DNA of 40,625 nucleotides from a virus. Below, piece after piece: positions 4,822-40,625 of this stretch. The stretch's first letter is position 1; every line of letters begins with the position of its first letter. The position numbers and the translations under genes are program-made. The stretch lies in the UHGV virus genome UHGV-0137877. One strand, written 5' to 3'. The notes under the pieces were generated by a model. It saw only the letters and a program-made list of their open reading frames with translations, was not told the DNA's origin and did no database searches.

Positions 4822-5034
4822 TTGAAGATAGTAACCAGAATGGAGGCCGCAAAAGCCGGGTTAAATCGCTATTTCACAGGAAAGCGGTGCCGTCACGGCC
4901 ATCTCTCTGAAAGGTATGTTCTGAACGGAACATGTGTTGAATGTGCAATGAATAGCGCCAACCGCCATCGTAATGAATTTGCTTGTGCACTAAAGAGTGC
5001 AAGAGGGGAAACCTATGGCAAGCAGCTGGATTAA
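4822..5034 (+). CDS. Small zinc-finger-like protein in the cII position
   Basis: 70 aa; probable TTG start with GGGG RBS; C-x4-H...C-x2-C cluster (CRHGH...CVEC). Confidence 0.4.
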   Translation: MKIVTRMEAAKAGLNRYFTGKRCRHGHLSERYVLNGTCVECAMNSANRHRNEFACALKSARGETYGKQLD

Positions 5035-5845
5035 GGTTGAAGTTATCACTCCTGATAAACCTGAAATTTTTCAGATAGCAGAAATTCTGGGTATTGATCC
5101 AGATGCTGTTCTTGGAAAGCTGGTTCGTATATGGGCATGGGCTGACCAGCAAACAATAGACGGTAACGCTGGCAGCGTTACAAAAGGAGTACTTGATAGA
5201 CTCGCTTTTATTACAGGATTTGCTGACGCCCTCATTAGCGTCGGATGGCTTGCTTATCATGACGGCAAACTAATTCTTCCAAACTTTGAGCGACATAATG
5301 GAGAATCATCGAAAAAACGTGCACTTACGAATAGAAGAGTGGCAGAGCATCGAAAACGAGTAACGCAAAAAGTAACGCCAACAGCGTTACAAAAGGAGTT
5401 ACCAGAGGAAGAGGAAGAGGAAGATATATATAAAACCCCACACATAGCGCACGTGCGCGAGGGTGCTCCGACCAGTGAAGCGAACAGTACGCCGTTGCAG
5501 GTGGCAGAACCTGAATTTCTGGATGGCCTGAGTGAACCCATCGGGAAATTTCCGATGACAGATGGCTGGCTACCGTCGCCAGATTTTCGGCGGCGTGCTG
5601 CGCTGTGGGGAACGGCCCTGCCGGAACCGGAATTTACACCTGCTGAACTTGCTGCATTCCGGGATTACTGGATGGCTGAGGGCAAAGTGTTCACGCAGGT
5701 TCAGTGGGAACAAAAATTCGCCAGGCACGTAAATCATATCAGGGGAAAATCAAAAAATGCCGGGAAAAGCGATGAGCTTGACTGGAATAACACTGACTGG
5801 ATAGAAGGGGTGTGGGATGAAATCAACTCCAGAACTTCTCAATGA
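5015..5845 (+). CDS. Replisome organiser (O-like) with DnaT-like C-terminal region
   Basis: ORF track 4997..5845; preferred ATG at 5015 with GAGGGG RBS; acidic linker (EEEEEED); C-terminal FRDYWMAEGKVFTQVQWEQKF resembles DnaT-type domains. Confidence 0.55.
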   Translation: MASSWIKVEVITPDKPEIFQIAEILGIDPDAVLGKLVRIWAWADQQTIDGNAGSVTKGVLDRLAFITGFADALISVGWLAYHDGKLILPNFERHNGESSKKRALTNRRVAEHRKRVTQKVTPTALQKELPEEEEEEDIYKTPHIAHVREGAPTSEANSTPLQVAEPEFLDGLSEPIGKFPMTDGWLPSPDFRRRAALWGTALPEPEFTPAELAAFRDYWMAEGKVFTQVQWEQKFARHVNHIRGKSKNAGKSDELDWNNTDWIEGVWDEINSRTSQ

Positions 5846-6593
5846 GTACGATCGCTTACGTGAGCATGGTGTTGCTGTGCATGAAGAGCGGCGTGACAGC
5901 AATGGCAAAAAGGAGCAGGTTGCTAGAATTTTCAATGAACTATTTGTCCAGTTACAGGCTGCATTTCCTGCAAGCGTTTCGACCATAAGGGAGCAGAACA
6001 AACTTAATGAATTCCGTAAGCAATGGATGCTTGCGTTTCTGGAGAATGGGATCACTACAATGGAACAGGTTAACGCTGGTATGCGCCACGCCCGCGCCAG
6101 TGAGTCTCCGTTCTGGCCGTCGCCAGGGCAATTCATCAAGTGGTGTAAAGACAGCAAGATGGTTCTTGGCGTCACCATTGACGATGTGATGGCGGAGTTT
6201 CACCGGTACAGCAAGGAAAAAAGTTTATATCCTGGTGGTCCCGAAAGATTCCCGTGGCGACATCCGGTTATGTACTGGGTCGTATGTGATACCCGCCGTG
6301 CAATGTATCAGCGCCAGCTTAGCGAGATTGAGGTTGAGAAACACGCGCGCAGGCTGCTCGATGATTGGGCGAAAAAGGTGGCTTCCGGACAGCAGATACC
6401 GGATCCGGTGATCAGCATACAGGCAAAGCCAGAACCCATGAGTACGCCTCCGGACACAGGGAGAGACGTTTACCATCCACCAGGGCGAAGTTTCGGGTGC
6501 ATGCCTAACGCCGCCACCCTTGGGGGAATAACACCGGCGCAGTGGCTGATGGAGGAATACAGGCGGGGAAAGGCGGCAGGATTTATCAAGTAA
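5817..6593 (+). CDS. P: Replication protein P-like helicase loader
   Basis: 258 aa; ENGITTMEQVNAGMRHARASESPFWPSPGQFIKWC closely matches the conserved core recalled from lambda P. Confidence 0.75.
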   Translation: MKSTPELLNEYDRLREHGVAVHEERRDSNGKKEQVARIFNELFVQLQAAFPASVSTIREQNKLNEFRKQWMLAFLENGITTMEQVNAGMRHARASESPFWPSPGQFIKWCKDSKMVLGVTIDDVMAEFHRYSKEKSLYPGGPERFPWRHPVMYWVVCDTRRAMYQRQLSEIEVEKHARRLLDDWAKKVASGQQIPDPVISIQAKPEPMSTPPDTGRDVYHPPGRSFGCMPNAATLGGITPAQWLMEEYRRGKAAGFIK

Positions 6594-14257: not shown

Positions 14258-14334
14258 TGGCGTGGCATGCAGGATTCGAACCTGCGACCAACCGCTTAGA
14301 AGGCGGTTGCTCTGTCCAACTGAGCTAATGCCAC
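14258..14334 (-). tRNA. tRNA-Arg (anticodon UCU)
   Basis: 77-nt cloverleaf folded by hand: 7-bp acceptor stem, D-arm GCTC/GAGC, anticodon stem ACCGC/GCGGT with loop CTTCTAA, T-arm GCAGG-TTCGAAT-CCTGC, discriminator G, encoded CCA. Confidence 0.9.
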
Positions 14335-33394: not shown

Positions 33395-36300
33395 ATGACG
33401 GTCTCAACCGAAGTTGACCACAACGAATACACAGGTAACGGCGTTACGACATCGTTTCCGTATACTTTTCGAATTTTCAGAAAATCAGACCTGGTTGTTC
33501 AGGTGTCTGACCTGAACGGGAACGTAACAGAATTGGTTCTGGATACCGGTTATACGGTAACTGGGGCGGGAACTTATAGTGGCGGTTCTGTGGTTCTTCC
33601 GTCGCCGCTTGCTACTGGATGGCGAATTACGATAGATCGTGTGCTTGATGTAGTGCAGGAGACAGACCTTCGCAATCAGGGAAAATTTTTCCCCGAAGTG
33701 CATGAAGATGCTTTTGACTACCTGACGATGCTGATCCAGCAATGTTTTGGGTGGTTCAGACGTGCATTGATGAAACCATCTTTGCTTGCAAAATATTACG
33801 ATGCAAAGCAAAACAAAATTTCTAACCTTGCAGATCCATCACTTGAACAGGACGCTGTAAATAATCGCTCAATGCGTAATTATGTCGATGCTGCAATCGC
33901 CGGGGTTGTTGGTGGTTTTGGTTGGTTTATTCAGTATGGTTCTGGGGCTGTGTACCGAACGTTCCAGGATAAAATGCGTGATGCTATTAGCCCCAAAGAT
34001 TTTGGAGCTGTTGGTGATGGTATAAATGACGATTCCACTGCAATAAGCGCGTGCCTTGAAGCCTCATCTCCAGGTTATAAAATTGACGGATTAGGGCTTA
34101 CTTTTAAAGTATCAACTCTTCCGGATGTCAGCCGATTTAAAAATGCTCGTTTTTTATTTGAGAGAATACCGGGTCAGCCTCTTTTTTATGCTTCTGAAGA
34201 TTTTATCCAGGGAGAGTTATTTAAAATTACAGATACACCGTGGTACAACGCCTGGACGCAGGATAAAACGTTTGTATATGACAATGTCATCTATGCGCCT
34301 TTTATGGCTGGAGACCGCCATGGTGTAAATAACCTCCATGTTGCATGGGTTCGCTCAGGAGATGACGGGAAGACCTGGACAACGCCGGAATGGCTTACAG
34401 ATTTACATGAAAACTATCCCACAGTTAACTATCACTGCATGAGTATGGGGGTTGTCAGAAATCGCCTTTTTGCTGTAATTGAGACGCGGACCGTGAGCGG
34501 AAATAAACTGCAGGTTGCAGAGTTGTGGGATCGCCCAATGAGTCGCAGCCTTCGCGTTTATGGTGGTATAACGAAAGCAGCAAATCAGCAAGTCGCTTAT
34601 ATTCGCATTACTGATCACGGATTATTTGCTGGTGATTTTGTCAACTTCTCAAACTCTGGTGTTACAGGTGTTACCGGGAATATGACGGTGACTACTGTTA
34701 TTGATAAAAATACTTTTACAGTTACGACGCAAAATACCCAGGATGTGGATCAGAATAACGAGGGTAGATACTGGAGTTTTGGTACATCATTTCACTCGTC
34801 ACCATGGAGAAAAACCAGTCTTGGAACTATTCCTTCTTTTGTTGACGGAAGCACTCCTGTTACTGAGATTCACAGTTTTGCGACGATTAGCGATAACAGT
34901 TTTGCTGTTGGCTACCATAATGGTGATATTGGTCCACGCGAGCTTGGGATACTCTATTTCTCTGATGCTTTCGGTTCTCCTGGTAGCTTTGTTCGCAGAC
35001 GCATACCTGCAGAATATGAGGCGAATGCATCTGAGCCATGTGTAAAATATTATGATGGCATTCTGTATCTGACGACCAGGGGGACATTAAGTACTCAACC
35101 CGGTAGTTCATTGCACAGAAGCTCTGATTTAGGTACATCATGGAATTCTCTTCGCTTCCCAAATAATGTTCATCACTCAAACCTTCCTTTTGCCAAAGTT
35201 GGCGATGAGCTGATTATTTTTGGCAGTGAGCGCGCATTTGGTGAGTGGGAAGGAGGAGAACCTGATAACCGTTATGCAGGAAATTATCCAAGAACATTTA
35301 TGACCAGAGTTAACGTCAATGAGTGGAGTCTGGATAATGTAGAGTGGGTTAATGTTACTGATCAGATTTATCAGGGCGGAATAGTTAACTCTGCGGTTGG
35401 TGTTGGTTCAGTTTGTATCAAAGACAACTGGCTGTACTACATTTTCGGTGGGGAAGACTTTCTAAACCCATGGAGCATAGGGGATAACAACAGAAAATAT
35501 CCTTATGTTCACGATGGTCACCCGGCTGATTTGTATTGTTTCAGGGTGAAAATTAAACAGGAAGAATTTGTTTCAAGGGATTTTGTCTACGGAGCCACTC
35601 CTAACAGAACGCTTCCTACTTTTATGTCGACGTCAGGCGTGAGGACGGTTCCTGTACCCGTTGATTTCACAGATGATGTTGCCGTCCAGTCACTGACTGT
35701 CCATGCAGGTACATCAGGACAAGTTCGCGCGGAAGTCAAACTTGAGGGTAATTACGCCATTATTGCGAAGAAAGTACCGTCTGATGATGTTACCGCTCAG
35801 AGATTAATCGTTAGCGGAGGTGAAACAACGTCTTCAGCAGATGGTGCAATGATAACGTTGCATGGTTCCGGAAGCAGTACTCCACGTCGCGCGGTATATA
35901 ACGCACTCGAACATCTTTTTGAGAACGGAGATGTTAAACCTTATCTTGATAATGTAAATGCTCTTGGTGGTCCGGGAAACAGGTTCTCGACAGTTTATCT
36001 TGGCTCCAATCCTGTGGTTACCAGTGACGGAACATTAAAGACAGAGCCGGTCTCTCCTGACGAAGCATTGCTGGATGCCTGGGGTGACGTCAGGTATATC
36101 GCTTATAAATGGCTGAACGCTGTCGCTATAAAGGGGGAAGAAGGGGCGAGGATACATCATGGTGTAATCGCGCAGCAACTTCGTGATGTTCTTATTTCTC
36201 ACGGACTCATGGAAGAAGAAAGCACAACATGCCGCTATGCCTTTCTTTGCTATGACGATTATCCCGCAGTATATGATGACGTCATTACTGGCCAAAGGGA

Positions 36301-36514
36301 AATGCCGCTGACTGATAATGACGGGAGCATCATTGTTGATGAGGATGATAATCCAGTGATGGTAATGGAAGACATCATTGAGCGCGTTGAAATAACGCCA
36401 GCAGGATCTAGATGGGGGGTCAGACCTGATCTCTTATTCTATATCGAGGCGGCATGGCAGCGCAGAGAAATGGATAAGATAAAAGAGCGGATTCAGTCTC
36501 TGGAAGAACGTTAA
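33395..36514 (+). CDS. Tailspike: endosialidase with gp17-like N-terminal anchor and C-terminal self-cleaving chaperone domain
   Basis: 1039 aa; N-terminus resembles the particle-binding domain of T7 gp17; two Asp-box motifs (SGDDGKTW, SSDLGTSW); C-terminal NPVVTSDGTLKTEP...HHGVIAQQLRDV resembles S74-type chaperone domains. Confidence 0.75.
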   Translation: MTVSTEVDHNEYTGNGVTTSFPYTFRIFRKSDLVVQVSDLNGNVTELVLDTGYTVTGAGTYSGGSVVLPSPLATGWRITIDRVLDVVQETDLRNQGKFFPEVHEDAFDYLTMLIQQCFGWFRRALMKPSLLAKYYDAKQNKISNLADPSLEQDAVNNRSMRNYVDAAIAGVVGGFGWFIQYGSGAVYRTFQDKMRDAISPKDFGAVGDGINDDSTAISACLEASSPGYKIDGLGLTFKVSTLPDVSRFKNARFLFERIPGQPLFYASEDFIQGELFKITDTPWYNAWTQDKTFVYDNVIYAPFMAGDRHGVNNLHVAWVRSGDDGKTWTTPEWLTDLHENYPTVNYHCMSMGVVRNRLFAVIETRTVSGNKLQVAELWDRPMSRSLRVYGGITKAANQQVAYIRITDHGLFAGDFVNFSNSGVTGVTGNMTVTTVIDKNTFTVTTQNTQDVDQNNEGRYWSFGTSFHSSPWRKTSLGTIPSFVDGSTPVTEIHSFATISDNSFAVGYHNGDIGPRELGILYFSDAFGSPGSFVRRRIPAEYEANASEPCVKYYDGILYLTTRGTLSTQPGSSLHRSSDLGTSWNSLRFPNNVHHSNLPFAKVGDELIIFGSERAFGEWEGGEPDNRYAGNYPRTFMTRVNVNEWSLDNVEWVNVTDQIYQGGIVNSAVGVGSVCIKDNWLYYIFGGEDFLNPWSIGDNNRKYPYVHDGHPADLYCFRVKIKQEEFVSRDFVYGATPNRTLPTFMSTSGVRTVPVPVDFTDDVAVQSLTVHAGTSGQVRAEVKLEGNYAIIAKKVPSDDVTAQRLIVSGGETTSSADGAMITLHGSGSSTPRRAVYNALEHLFENGDVKPYLDNVNALGGPGNRFSTVYLGSNPVVTSDGTLKTEPVSPDEALLDAWGDVRYIAYKWLNAVAIKGEEGARIHHGVIAQQLRDVLISHGLMEEESTTCRYAFLCYDDYPAVYDDVITGQREMPLTDNDGSIIVDEDDNPVMVMEDIIERVEITPAGSRWGVRPDLLFYIEAAWQRREMDKIKERIQSLEER

Positions 36515-36520
36515 AAAAAA

Positions 36521-36540
36521 GCCCGCAATATTTTGCGGGT
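36521..36540. terminator. Hairpin terminator after the tailspike gene
   Basis: GCCCGCAA-tatt-TTGCGGGT with A8 upstream; the U-run lies on the minus strand, so plus-strand termination may be weak. Confidence 0.45.
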
Positions 36541-36820
36541 ATCAAAAACGGAGTTTGTGAAAAGTTATCTTTGAATTCTATCATGAATCAGTACGTATTT
36601 TAAATACATGTTCAGGTTTATTACACCATAGCATTATTAAATACAAAATTAAGTCTATGGTTCCTGTACAACTGCCCCCACTCTGCTGGCTCGTTCTGTA
36701 AAATCATTAGTACTTTTATTGAGATATATGATACGGAACAATAATGATTCATATATGGTTTACTATGCGGGTTTAGTCATCAATAATTGACTGGCTTATA
36801 GATAGTAAACAGGAGAAAGT

Positions 36821-37225
36821 ATGTCTGCTCAAGTAACAAGTGAGCAATTAAATCAGTTGCTTAGTTTTGGTTCTCTTGCTGCGGTTATTGCAGGTGTCCC
36901 TCCGGAGGTTGCTTTAGGGGCTTTGGCTGGGGCGGTAATTTTTGTTACCTCTGCAGTAGAGTACCCCATCCGTCGCCGGGTGCTCCTGTCGATGCTCAGC
37001 TTTCTTTGCGGCCTTCTCTTTTACAAACCAGCAGCATCAATTCTTATCGGCATAGCCAGCCTGATCCCTACCATCACGCAGGACTCTTTTGAAAAAGGGA
37101 TTGTTTTCTCTGCAGGCGCATTCGTGTCAGCAATTGTCGCTGTGCGTATTGGTATATGGCTCTATCACCGTTCCGATAATCCACGCGAGTTAATTCCGGG
37201 GAGAAAAGACGATGGTAACGCATGA
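36821..37225 (+). CDS. Membrane protein, putative holin or lysis regulator
   Basis: 134 aa; AGGAGA RBS; three or four transmembrane segments; first gene of the lysis cluster. Confidence 0.45.
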   Translation: MSAQVTSEQLNQLLSFGSLAAVIAGVPPEVALGALAGAVIFVTSAVEYPIRRRVLLSMLSFLCGLLFYKPAASILIGIASLIPTITQDSFEKGIVFSAGAFVSAIVAVRIGIWLYHRSDNPRELIPGRKDDGNA

Positions 37226-37520
37226 GTTTTTTTTGCTTATCACCAATGCAGTTATTTGCACTGGCATAGCAATTCGCGTTGTCACATTCCGGCGTAACGG
37301 CTCTCAACATCGAAGGTGGGGAGGATGGCTTGCTTATTTCCTGATTGTTGCTGCGGCCAGTATTCCTGTTCGAGTCGCCTATGCAATCTGGTTACGTACG
37401 CCAATGGCTGTGGATTTATCCGAGGTCATTATCAACGCTGTCATGCTTGCTGCGGTTATTAAAACGCGCGGTAACGTCGTTCAAATTTTCAAAGTATCGA
37501 GGTCTAAACATGGAGATTAA
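37212..37520 (+). CDS. Holin-like membrane protein
   Basis: 102 aa; three hydrophobic helices, charged C-terminus; overlaps the endolysin start. Confidence 0.5.
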
Positions 37521-38139
37521 ACAATTCCAGCGAGCTGCTGGTATCAGCGAGGCACTGGCCGCACGCTGGTTCTCGCATATAACTTCTGCGATGAAAGAGT
37601 TTGGTATCAGCAAACCAGAAGATCAGGCTATGTTTATTGCTCAGGTCGGGCATGAGTCTGGAGGCTTCACCCGGTTGCAGGAGAATTTCAACTACAGCGT
37701 CAGCGGACTGGCTAACTTTGTTCGGGCTGGGCGTCTCACTCAGGGACAGGCCAACGCATTGGGGCGCCGTGCTGGTGAACCACCATTGCCACTTGAGCGC
37801 CAGCGCGCGATCGCAAATCTGGTATACAGCAAACGCATGGGGAACAATGCCCCTGGTGATGGCTGGAATTACCGAGGGCGCGGACTTATCCAGATTACCG
37901 GTTTGAATAACTATCGTGATTGCGGAAACGGTCTGAAGGTTGACCTGCTGGAGAGCCCTGAACTGCTGGCGCAGGACGAATATGCGGCTCGTAGCGCGGC
38001 GTGGTTCTTTGCCAGCAAAGGATGCATGAAGTATACCGGCGATATTGCACGTGTAACTCTGATTATCAATGGTGGCCGGAACGGCATCGACGACCGGCGC
38101 GCGCGATACATCAATGCCAGTAAGGTGCTGGCGGTATGA
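37510..38139 (+). CDS. Endolysin, GH19 chitinase-like
   Basis: ORF track 37345..38139; preferred ATG 37510 after GAGG; motifs [10 protein letters not shown] and [15 protein letters not shown]. Confidence 0.75.
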
Positions 38140-38633
38140 TCCTGACATTCGTAAAAGCATATTGGAAACAGCTGCTTATCGTGTTGATGCTTGCTGCTCT
38201 GTTCATCGTCGGAGTGGTTGCCTGGAATATACACGGCAGCCGCCAGTACGATGCCGGGTATGCGCAGGCACAGGAAGATCAGAAACAGGCTGATGATAAG
38301 GCCAGGTCACAACGTGATCAGGAGAAAACACAAATTGAACGTGAAGCACAATCCCGTATCGATGTGGCGCGTGTTGATGCTGAGCATGCTAATGCCGCTG
38401 CTGACAGCCTGCGCGCCGAGCTTGACAAAACCAAGCGACTCGCCGAACACTATACCGGATCTTTCCCCACTGGCACGCCAGCCAGCAAGGTCATCGGTGT
38501 GCTCGCCGACATGCTTGAAGAAAGCAATCGAGTTTACAACGCAACAGCAGCTGAGGCTGAAAAGTATCGGATTGCAGGAGAATCCTGCGAACAGCAATAC
38601 GATTCACTGAAGAAGCAAAAATCGTGGCACTGA
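38136..38633 (+). CDS. i-spanin (Rz-like)
   Basis: 165 aa; N-terminal transmembrane helix then charged coiled coil; directly after the endolysin. Confidence 0.6.
38362..38610 (+). CDS. o-spanin (Rz1-like), embedded in the +1 frame of the i-spanin gene
   Basis: ORF track 38191..38610; proposed start at an internal ATG giving [17 protein letters not shown] (lipobox LTAC) then a Pro-rich mature region. Confidence 0.5.
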   Translation: MWRVLMLSMLMPLLTACAPSLTKPSDSPNTIPDLSPLARQPARSSVCSPTCLKKAIEFTTQQQLRLKSIGLQENPANSNTIH

Positions 38634-38765
38634 TTTCCGGCGACGGTATATAAAACGGTACGGTGAAAATCATGTTGCAGAAAGTTGTTATCAATCAATT
38701 GTTTATGGTATCCGTAAATAATTGAGTGGGAATGATTTTGATCCCTGCACTATGAATGAACAAAA

Positions 38766-38791
38766 CCCTCTGTTACTACAGAGGGTTTTTT
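38766..38791. terminator. Bidirectional rho-independent terminator near the prophage right end
   Basis: CCCTCTG-ttacta-CAGAGGG followed by TTTTT on plus and a short U-run on minus. Confidence 0.65.
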
Positions 38792-38829
38792 ATCTTCAAG
38801 AATTATAGGCTTGAAGTTACTTACATCGA

Positions 38830-39369
38830 TTAATTAAACCAGCTGTCCGATTTGTTCTCTTCTGCTTTGCCCACGCTTTTCATCAGATCGCGACCGCCTT
38901 CAGTCATATTTCTGTTTGCGTCAGCTTCAGATTGCACCACATCGGTTTGCGCAGCTTTGTGCTTCAGTTCCTGATCGATAAATTCGTTTTCGCGCTTGAC
39001 GCGGGCTTCTTCTTTCGCCAGCGCCAGTTTTTGTTTCTGAATCTCTAAGCTACGTAGCTCATCTTCATAACTTTGATCGCGTTTTTTGTCCGCAGTGGCT
39101 TCGGCGTCCAGTTTATCCTGACGAGCTTTCTTATTCGCTGCTGCCGTTGCCGCTCTTTTATTAGCCGCGGCCTGGGCGTTTGCGCGACGTTGCTTCTCTT
39201 GCTGGATTTCCCTGTTGCGCTCCGCGACCCATTCGTCATGCTGCCTTTGCTCTTCATTTTTACCTTGCTGTTCCGCTTCTGCGACAGCCGAGAGTTGATC
39301 CTGCAATGATGAGGCGATAGCCGGATAGCTTAAGGAGGCTAAGATGGCGCAAAGAAAAACTTTCTTCAT
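38830..39369 (-). CDS. Secreted Lys/Ala/Glu-rich coiled-coil protein
   Basis: 179 aa; signal peptide MKKVFLCAILASLSYPAIA; strong AGGAGG RBS; 15-nt gap from the upstream gene. Confidence 0.55.
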   Translation of the reverse strand: MKKVFLCAILASLSYPAIASSLQDQLSAVAEAEQQGKNEEQRQHDEWVAERNREIQQEKQRRANAQAAANKRAATAAANKKARQDKLDAEATADKKRDQSYEDELRSLEIQKQKLALAKEEARVKRENEFIDQELKHKAAQTDVVQSEADANRNMTEGGRDLMKSVGKAEENKSDSWFN

Positions 39370-39384
39370 GACTCCTCCTGATTA

Positions 39385-39900
39385 TTAGCTCTTTTCAGGA
39401 CATTTGGTATTTGGCTGAATACGCGTTTCGTTATACGTCGTGGTAATAACAACGGCTAAACCTGTCGTAAACTGGCACTCTTTACCCACCTGGGTGGAGG
39501 TATACACTTTGGTGCCTTCCTTATATGTTAAAGAAACACCTTCCACTAAGGTTTTATCATTCACCATCGAACCCGCTGCCGCGCCTACAGCTCCGCCGCC
39601 AACTGCACCTGCCGTCGTTCCGGAATTGCTGCCAGACCCGACGTTGTGGCCGATAACACCGCCAGCGACAGCGCCAATAAGCGCGCCGAAGGCTTGTGCG
39701 TTCCGTTTATTTTGGGCGTTGTCTACGGCAACTTTTGCGGGAAGAATGGAAATAATATTAACGGTTTTAGTTTCTTGTTTGGTATTCAGTTGATCGGTTT
39801 GATAAACATCGGCGGCATGATCATCAGCATTTGACTGGCATCCTGCCAGAGTGAATGACGCTAACATTGCCACAGGCAGAAGACATTTTTTAAATTTCAT
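39385..39900 (-). CDS. Glycine-zipper lipoprotein (SlyB/YcfJ-like)
   Basis: ORF track 39385..39903; preferred ATG 39900; lipobox LAGC; Gly-zipper segment GALIGAVAGGVIGHNVGSGS...AVGGGAVGAAAG. Confidence 0.65.
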   Translation of the reverse strand: MKFKKCLLPVAMLASFTLAGCQSNADDHAADVYQTDQLNTKQETKTVNIISILPAKVAVDNAQNKRNAQAFGALIGAVAGGVIGHNVGSGSNSGTTAGAVGGGAVGAAAGSMVNDKTLVEGVSLTYKEGTKVYTSTQVGKECQFTTGLAVVITTTYNETRIQPNTKCPEKS

Positions 39901-40213
39901 CACTATTCCTTGTTATACACATTACGAAAAATGAGACATTTAAGATCATCAAAAGAGGAAAGTAAATGTATTGCGTATAAAGGAATAGATTAAATTTATT
40001 AAAATTCATGCGGGAAATAATTTATAAAAATACATCATCACAACATATGTATTAATGATGTATTTATTTCGCAGCCGAACAGGATGAACTTCAGTCAGAA
40101 CAAAGACGTAAAATTTAAGATGAAAGAATATCTGCCGCTTTGATAATCTCAAAGAGCAAAAGCATCCGACAGCGAGGTGCCGTTATGTTCTGTGAGAGTG
40201 GAGAAGGTAACCG

Positions 40214-40405
40214 CTAACGTTGTACCGGTGATTCGACGGAGAGTGTGGATTGCTGAGCTTCTTTTTTGCTCTGATGGTGCTGCCAGGCACCGACGGACGA
40301 GTAGATAAAACGGCCAAAGAAGAAGATAAAGCTGATGAGCAGTACGATACGGGTCATGCGACTGTTAAATCGGTGTCGTTTTCGCATACTGGTTGCCTGA
40401 CTCAC
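40214..40405 (-). CDS. Small single-pass membrane protein
   Basis: 63 aa; GTG start after AAGGAA; basic N-terminus then one hydrophobic helix. Confidence 0.35.
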   Translation of the reverse strand: MSQATSMRKRHRFNSRMTRIVLLISFIFFFGRFIYSSVGAWQHHQSKKEAQQSTLSVESPVQR

Positions 40406-40625
40406 AAAAGGTTCCTTGAAGTATGTCCCACGCCGTGGACGGTACTTACATTAAGGCACAACAGGACAAAATGGTCAATTCTTCGTTATGTAAAAAAGCG
40501 TCAGTTGATACATATTTTAATGTTATGAAAGTTAATTTAATTATTTACAATGATGATGTAATAATGATGAGTTAACATGATAAACGTAATAATTCATTAA
40601 TCAGGGTTATTTTGTTTGATATATA

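Follow-up and report, generated by a model that had tools for sequence, protein, structure and literature searches.

The right-hand end of the virus genome UHGV-0137877 raises the question of whether the genes that follow its lysis module belong to the virus or to the bacterium in which it resides. The window, meaning the whole stretch of DNA that was analysed, is 40,625 nucleotides long. An earlier note had described a secreted coiled-coil protein and a glycine-zipper lipoprotein encoded by a tight minus-strand pair, followed by AT-rich DNA and a gene for a 63-aa membrane protein, and had offered two readings: the genes could be cargo of the prophage, such as receptor-masking lipoproteins, or they could be host genes at the junction. 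The three open reading frames (ORFs) were recovered exactly as described, all on the minus strand, at 38830-39369, 39385-39903 and 40214-40405. Genes of the same lengths are named yfgI, yfgH and yfgG in RefSeq. Our answer, to which we assign a probability of about 95%, is that positions 38738-40625 are Escherichia coli chromosome lying beside a Uetakevirus prophage in the last 17 bp of guaA, with attR at 38721-38737.

The prophage and its right boundary

The element is an epsilon15/phiV10-type (Uetakevirus) prophage inserted in the tail of guaA. Its genes run in the order terminase, portal, capsid, tail, tailspike, two holin-like genes, GH19 endolysin and DUF2514 spanin, and its lysis cassette is 98% identical to that of phage vB_EcoP_ZX5 (ZX5) over window positions 36500-38269. 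Members of the Uetakevirus group vary in the tailspike and in some accessory genes. The last prophage gene (38136-38633, plus strand) encodes an Rz-like i-spanin (Pfam DUF2514, 91.8 bits), whose counterpart in the related lysogen NZ_CP138217 (L002) is annotated as a DUF2514 family protein. The gene pair was thus correctly placed next to the lysis module.

The attR core, ATTGAGTGGGAATGATT, lies on the plus strand at 38721-38737. It is 17 bp long and comprises the last four codons of guaA and its stop codon, encoding the C-terminus I-E-W-E of GMP synthase. The core that marks Uetakevirus integration at the 3' end of guaA, attgagtgggaatgatt, matches this position exactly. The same 17 bp are the experimentally verified attP/attB of vB_EcoP_ZX5 and have also been stated for phiV10 and epsilon15 (PMC9782041). 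The core and its position at the guaA stop are identical in these three Uetakeviruses and in the window, with the difference that only attR falls inside the window. A tyrosine integrase would have put the prophage into these last 17 bp of guaA.

The junction was examined by comparing the empty site of a K-12 derivative (L001) with both ends of the lysogen L002 and with the window. In the resulting four-way attB/attL/attR alignment, the flanking sequences swap exactly at the 17-mer. L002 contains two copies of the core, one at 4846-4862 at the end of guaA and the other at 45558-45574 just before yfgI, and together they flank the whole stretch from the integrase (5053-6303, after the left copy) to the Rz-like gene. 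The left copy, beside the integrase, is the kind of repeat that the earlier note had proposed to look for at the unseen left end. Window position 1 corresponds to position 6449 of L002 (97% identity), about 1.6 kb to the right of attL. Judging from this collinear lysogen, attL and the integrase are expected about 1.6 kb beyond the left edge of the window, and for that reason the window holds a single copy of the core; no second copy of the 17-mer was found in it, even with two mismatches allowed. The earlier observation that no att repeat could be identified is therefore correct as far as a repeat is concerned, although the core itself is present.

Matches of E. coli genomes to window positions 38600-40625 mostly begin at query position 122, which is window position 38721, and overlap the end of guaA. 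Matches of several phage or prophage-derived records of the group to positions 36500-40625 end at query positions 2237-2239 (about 38737 in the window), and those of ZX5, phiV10 and epsilon15 end earlier, within the lysis cassette. At the other end of the element, phage genomes of the group match the attL region starting exactly at the core. With the core ending at 38737 and yfgI lying from 38830, yfgI is 92 bp outside the core on the host side. This short interval of host DNA contains a hairpin at 38762-38789, found by a terminator scan, whose 12 paired bases lie between A-runs and T-runs. The identical sequence is found in the empty-site genome directly after guaA, and the hairpin serves guaA and yfgI, which converge on it, as a common bidirectional terminator. 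For annotation purposes, the right boundary of the prophage is to be set at 38737, and the three host genes are no longer to be counted as phage cargo.

Resident genes between guaA and pdeF

A megablast search with positions 38600-40625 yielded a match in every complete E. coli genome searched (5426/5426), always on the chromosome; in 5395 of these genomes it extended over 80% or more of the query. The features annotated under these matches are yfgI (DUF5384), yfgH (glycine zipper 2TM or outer membrane lipoprotein) and yfgG. A 300-bp probe spanning the guaA-yfgI junction is uninterrupted in 4463 of the 5426 genomes; the prophage-type junction, which leads from the DUF2514 gene to yfgI, was found in 184 E. 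coli genomes. The comparison with an empty site, also proposed earlier, is provided by L001, in which the order is guaB-guaA-yfgI-yfgH-yfgG-(50-aa ORF)-pdeF and the gap between guaA and yfgI is 92 bp. In E. coli K-12, yfgI, yfgH and yfgG lie between guaA and pdeF in the same order, on the same strands, with the same spacers and at the same lengths (179, 172 and 63 aa). Their DNA is 97-99% identical to that of the window, the differences being allelic only, whereas in the window the prophage parts guaA from yfgI.

The genes to the right of attR are accordingly the resident neighbours of guaA, namely the yfgH-yfgI operon, yfgG and then the start of the region upstream of pdeF. The last of these contains a 50-aa ORF (40423-40575, plus strand), a hypothetical protein in RefSeq, which lies in host DNA upstream of pdeF and runs divergently from yfgG. 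Neither Pfam nor NCBIfam gave a match for it, and L001 and L002 each have an annotated ORF of equal length at the corresponding position. The locus is an ordinary one; its genes, its att site and the phage group are all known already.

The gene yfgG (40214-40405, minus strand) has a GTG start and encodes a 63-aa protein of the DUF2633 family (Pfam PF11119, 97.6 bits against a cut-off of 25). It has a single hydrophobic span at residues 20-38, in agreement with its earlier description as a membrane protein. It is a separate transcription unit, and a terminator-like hairpin of yfgG at 40182-40167 on the minus strand, found by a consensus scan, parts it from yfgH. Nickel and cobalt tolerance phenotypes have been reported for yfgG both on overexpression and on disruption (PMC6338753), and YfgG would be an independent small inner-membrane protein needed for tolerance of the two metals.

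The AT-rich DNA noticed earlier is real, but it is confined to the spacers. G+C content is 32.9% in the spacer between yfgG and yfgH (39904-40213), 29.5% at 40406-40625 and 35.9% at 38738-38829, whereas the coding G+C content of the three genes is normal at 47.6-49.5%. A candidate promoter-like site of yfgHI was picked up by a consensus scan on the minus strand at 40152-40125, at a level not above chance; the sigma-70 promoter scan gave three sites against 4.3 expected by chance. An Rfam search of positions 38500-40625 at a permissive E-value produced no match, so that the AT-rich spacers contain no known sRNA or riboswitch.

Readings of the origin and misleading records

Could the pair nevertheless belong to the adjacent Uetakevirus prophage as cargo (a moron), such as a receptor-masking or exclusion lipoprotein system that the lysogen expresses? 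It lies only 197 bp from the last lysis gene, yet beyond the att core and on the host side. Both proteins match PHROGs families (E-values of 1e-104 and 1e-111) and the genes are contained in the phage record TL-2011b, but that record is an over-extended prophage sequence that also holds half of pdeF, and the free phages ZX5, phiV10, PAS61 and epsilon15 lack the genes, their homology stopping at or before the core. A likeness of YfgH to the exclusion lipoprotein TraT would suit an exclusion system; it scores 28 bits against PF05818, under the Pfam cut-off of 31, with an E-value of 0.004 for PDB 9E2V. Above all, virtually all E. coli genomes have the genes, among them the 4463 with an empty site. 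Because the same genes stand at the locus in strains without the prophage, the cargo reading is refuted, and we give it practically no chance of being right. The other reading offered by the earlier note, that of host genes at the junction, is the one borne out: they are core E. coli genes outside the att core and are absent from free Uetakevirus genomes.

The record TL-2011b (NC_019445, JQ011317) encodes YfgI, YfgH and YfgG at 98-99% amino-acid identity. It starts just after attL, contains a single core at 41251-41267 and runs 3.5 kb beyond it through yfgI, yfgH and yfgG into 501 codons of pdeF. In a tblastn search of the phage collection, near-identical matches to YfgI came only from the two TL-2011b accessions. 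The record is a prophage sequence plus host flank and is not evidence of carriage. The PHROG matches, phrog_1094 and phrog_1277, were rejected as support for a phage origin; in the phage collection, the near-identical matches stem from the host flank of TL-2011b and the diverged ones from P7/P1-like paralogues. In addition, the name 'DNA methyltransferase' is misapplied to a YfgH-type lipoprotein in phrog_1277, in RefSeq for TL-2011b gp55 and for P7 upf50.5. The overrun of TL-2011b or this wrong name, either on its own, could make the genes look phage-borne to homology-based pipelines.

The tblastn search of the phage collection also recovered full-length YfgI homologues of 47.5% identity in P7, some P1 isolates, SJ46, RCS47, JL22 and phi456. 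In the plasmid collection, 186 records have a YfgI copy of less than 60% identity; those listed are at 47.5-50%, apart from one Vibrio plasmid whose copy is 55% identical over the C-terminal half. Most plasmid carriers come from E. coli or Salmonella, are non-mobilizable and measure about 83-146 kb, and we infer them to be P1-like phage-plasmids. The pairing of lipoprotein and DUF5384 protein is also found on a ColE1-type plasmid of 7.5 kb (pZF34-7kb), at 61.5% identity and with an in-frame stop in the yfgI-like copy, which may be a pseudogene. The cassette travels on mobile elements, and the window's copy is the fixed chromosomal one. The idea of cargo is thus not absurd in general, as P7, P1-like elements and the ColE1-type plasmid carry the diverged two-gene cassette; each is a different element and a different copy from the yfgH-yfgI pair of the window.

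A more distant mobile origin can also be envisaged, in which yfgG-yfgH-yfgI is an old, horizontally acquired islet at a hotspot at the 3' end of guaA, the remnant of an earlier mobile element, now fixed in Escherichia and its relatives. The family is indeed narrow and patchy in its distribution: 260 database proteins match YfgI, mostly from Escherichia and Citrobacter and some from Salmonella and Enterobacter, and orthologues of both genes of the pair are present in S. Typhi and absent from S. Typhimurium (PMC11619404). The order pdeF-yfgG-yfgH-yfgI-guaA, however, is alike in E. coli, E. albertii, Citrobacter and two further Enterobacteriaceae. While integration at the 3' end of guaA is proven (PMC9782041), no integrase, repeat or second att core was found around the genes, and their coding G+C content is normal even though the spacers are AT-rich. 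The diverged copies on P7, P1-like elements, the ColE1-type plasmid and the Vibrio plasmid would fit an islet, as would a second paralogous pair located away from guaA in Escherichia sp. E1V33. On balance we consider such an acquisition unlikely, and the event, even if true, long predates the prophage of the window and is unrelated to it.

The yfgH-yfgI pair and its known counterparts

The gene yfgH (39385-39903, minus strand, GTG start) encodes an outer-membrane lipoprotein of 172 aa, with a lipobox L-A-G-C (Cys22), a Gly/Ala zipper and a glycine zipper 2TM domain (Pfam PF05433, 33.2 bits against a cut-off of 24.2). NCBIfam gave sub-threshold matches only for YfgH and none for YfgI and YfgG. 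With its lipobox, its domain score and a full-length likeness to SlyB, YfgH is the glycine-zipper lipoprotein that it had been taken for. According to a December 2025 preprint, deletion of yfgH renders E. coli sensitive to detergent and chelator, raises outer-membrane permeability and causes outer-membrane proteins to be lost under stress, and mutations in clsA suppress the deletion; the SlyB-like YfgH rings presented there are AlphaFold3 models for which the authors state that there is no strong biochemical evidence, and yfgI goes unmentioned (bioRxiv 10.64898/2025.12.22.696046). YfgH would be a lipid-anchored, SlyB-like protein that, as reported, stabilises the outer membrane together with its proteins when the envelope is stressed, and it probably acts as ring-shaped oligomers, as modelled.

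The gene yfgI (38830-39369, minus strand) follows yfgH after a gap of only 15 bp, a tight pair as claimed, and has an AGGAGG motif 5 nt ahead of its ATG. Its product is a Sec-exported, highly charged long-helix protein of 179 aa belonging to DUF5384 (Pfam PF17358, 209 bits against a cut-off of 25). The Sec signal, MKKVFLCAILASLSYPAIA, was read from the sequence; K2-K3 and a hydrophobic core (residues 4-22) are followed by an A-I-A cleavage motif, after which the mature protein begins with SS. Charged residues (D/E/K/R) make up 40% of the mature protein. AlphaFold2, run on a 14-sequence alignment, predicts a single unbroken helix at residues 3-178 with a mean pLDDT of 86 and a pTM of 0.37, which for the 159 mature residues at 0.15 nm each amounts to about 24 nm. 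The long helix is supported by this model. The protein had been called a secreted coiled coil; the Sec signal and the long helix agree with that description, but the heptad signal is weak and the coiled coil is supported as a long helix only. Conservation is strong in the N-terminal segment (residues 22-40) and in the C-terminal half (residues 95-179), and the Ala-rich middle (about residues 68-85) shows deletions of 2 to 9 residues within E. coli. YfgI would be translated from the same transcript as yfgH, 15 bp after it, and would reach the periplasm as a helix about 160 residues long, whose Ala-rich middle would tolerate insertions and deletions and might serve as a spacer.

A YfgI profile search of genome contigs returned at least 12 loci, whose taxonomic range is a sample and not a census. 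In 12/12 loci among the matches listed, the gene directly before the yfgI homologue, on the same strand, is a yfgH homologue. The pairing holds in Pseudomonas, in Cellvibrio and in an alphaproteobacterial MAG, none of which has guaA, pdeF or yfgG in the vicinity of the pair. The orthologous pair of S. Typhi has been described as an operon, srgIL, under the control of SdiA, and the same paper takes E. coli yfgHI to be a single locus (PMC11619404). Since a yfgH homologue always precedes the yfgI homologue in the loci examined, and given the srgIL operon, we infer that YfgI works in the periplasm as a partner of YfgH or an accessory to it. The strict pairing, on chromosomes and mobile elements alike, suggests a partner for the recently characterised YfgH and is a mildly useful lead.

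The outer membrane governs the entry of nalidixic acid into the cell, and this bears on a phenotype of yfgI. Relative to wild type, survival of the yfgI deletion mutant is 7% on nalidixic acid, compared with 98% on kasugamycin and 74% on ampicillin, which the authors read as pointing to the DNA-damage response (PMC3536626). A role of YfgI in that response, independent of YfgH and deduced from phyletic profiling together with the nalidixic-acid phenotype, seems to us highly doubtful: YfgI lacks any DNA-related domain and carries a cleavable Sec signal, its gene directly follows that of an outer-membrane lipoprotein in every locus listed, and the SdiA-regulated orthologous operon of Salmonella was associated with no SdiA-dependent difference in sensitivity to nalidixate or UV (PMC11619404). 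Because YfgI is exported, the sensitivity of the mutant is more simply taken as a barrier defect, and would reflect the permeability of the envelope and not a failure of DNA repair.

Among known systems, the closest to YfgH is SlyB, an outer-membrane lipoprotein that forms rings around nanodomains of lipid and outer-membrane proteins (PDB 7OJF/7OJG). YfgH aligns with SlyB (7OJF) over its full length, residues 8-164 against residues 5-154, with an E-value of 4.4e-10, and the alignment takes in the lipobox, the glycine zipper and the C-terminal domain. It is a paralogue of SlyB and not an orthologue. The gene slyB is not known to have a yfgI-like gene downstream. The genetic suppressors differ as well, being clsA for yfgH and the Mla pathway for slyB (bioRxiv 10.64898/2025.12.22.696046). 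With the surface-exclusion lipoprotein TraT, YfgH has in common a glycine-zipper region and its nature as an outer-membrane lipoprotein; the similarity is weak, and membership of the TraT family was rejected on the score below the Pfam cut-off.

The closest counterpart of the pair as a whole is on phage P7, where upf50.5 (the lipoprotein) is 67% identical to YfgH and upf50.0 (DUF5384) is 47% identical to YfgI. One speculative reading, which we hold tentatively and would not bet on, is that yfgH-yfgI is a self-contained, transferable envelope module made up of a SlyB-like ring lipoprotein and a periplasmic helix, and that the copies on P7, P1-like elements and the ColE1-type plasmid remodel or protect the envelope of the host. 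If true, the mobile copies might serve, for example, exclusion or the stress tolerance of the lysogen. This idea is independent of the prophage in the window. As in yfgH-yfgI, the lipoprotein gene of P7 comes first and the gene for the DUF5384 protein follows, 3 nt later, so that the two-gene cassette is the same. It sits between the c4-icd-ant immunity region and the late tail operon, and P1-like elements carry the same pair. The P7 copy, much more diverged, is true phage cargo.

The guaA 3' end as an integration site

The junction between guaA and yfgI is not contiguous in 963 of 5426 complete E. coli genomes (about 18%), and 184 genomes of the same collection have the right junction seen in the window. 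On these counts, the 3' end of guaA seems to be a site that is often occupied by integrated elements. In Klebsiella, too, prophage records (matches H84 and H90) carry an integrase together with a GMP-synthase fragment. In Citrobacter sp. ANG330 (L008 5534-8305), yfgI lies about 2.7 kb from guaA, and the intervening DNA may be a further insertion there. A yfgH-yfgI pair with 61% identity occurs in Escherichia sp. E1V33 (L009), at a locus that contains neither guaA nor pdeF.

In the related lysogen NZ_CP138217, a hairpin, AACCCTCTGTTTTTACAGAGGGTT (L002 4907-4934), lies in the stretch of phage DNA that separates the integrase from the att core. It has almost the same stem as the host guaA terminator (window 38762-38789), so that in the integrated state a look-alike terminator is restored to guaA at attL. 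A terminator is annotated at the corresponding place, between att core and integrase, in the phiV10 record.

Host yfgI and yfgH and their mobile relatives

Among the E. coli YfgI alleles (proteins P0002-P0032), in-frame deletions of 2, 4, 6, 7 or 9 residues all fall within a single alanine-rich repeat, AAANKRAATAAANKKARQ (window 39115-39170, residues about 68-85), outside of which the protein is near-invariant.

The 'complete genome' of phage TL-2011b (NC_019445.1, also JQ011317.1) includes 3.5 kb of host DNA beyond attR (41268-44784). This part encodes yfgI, yfgH, yfgG, a 50-aa ORF and 501 codons of pdeF, and because of it all these host genes can appear phage-borne in homology searches. A yfgH-yfgI cassette is nonetheless true cargo of P7 (NC_050152.1, L016 3476-4540) and P1-like elements, where it is diverged (67% and 47% amino acid identity) and has the immI region on one side and the late tail operon on the other. 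Of the records in the PLSDB plasmid collection, 186 contain a copy at less than 60% identity, matches H120-H141 among them. The pair is also found on a ColE1-type plasmid (L017 836-1946), with an in-frame stop within its yfgI-like copy.

RefSeq phage records and PHROG 1277 give the YfgH-type SlyB-like lipoprotein the name 'DNA methyltransferase'; the RefSeq entries are TL-2011b gp55 (L003 41915-42430) and P7 upf50.5 (L016 3476-3997). The name, in RefSeq and phrog_1277 alike, is evidently a propagated misannotation.

Genes of the prophage

The candidate Rz1-type o-spanin (window 38362-38610, plus strand) is the real phage-encoded lipoprotein of this neighbourhood. It is encoded in the +1 frame inside the DUF2514 Rz-like gene, and has a lipobox (LLTAC) and a mature part rich in proline. 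The prophage carries a tRNA-Arg gene (anticodon TCT; 14258-14334, minus strand) between its terminase and portal regions, and the NZ_CP138217 lysogen has such a gene at the matching place. The 1039-aa tailspike (33395-36514, plus strand) matches in position and length a gene of that lysogen annotated as an endosialidase catalytic beta-propeller protein, which suggests a K1-capsule-specific Uetakevirus. ZX5, a close relative, has a K1 strain as its isolation host.
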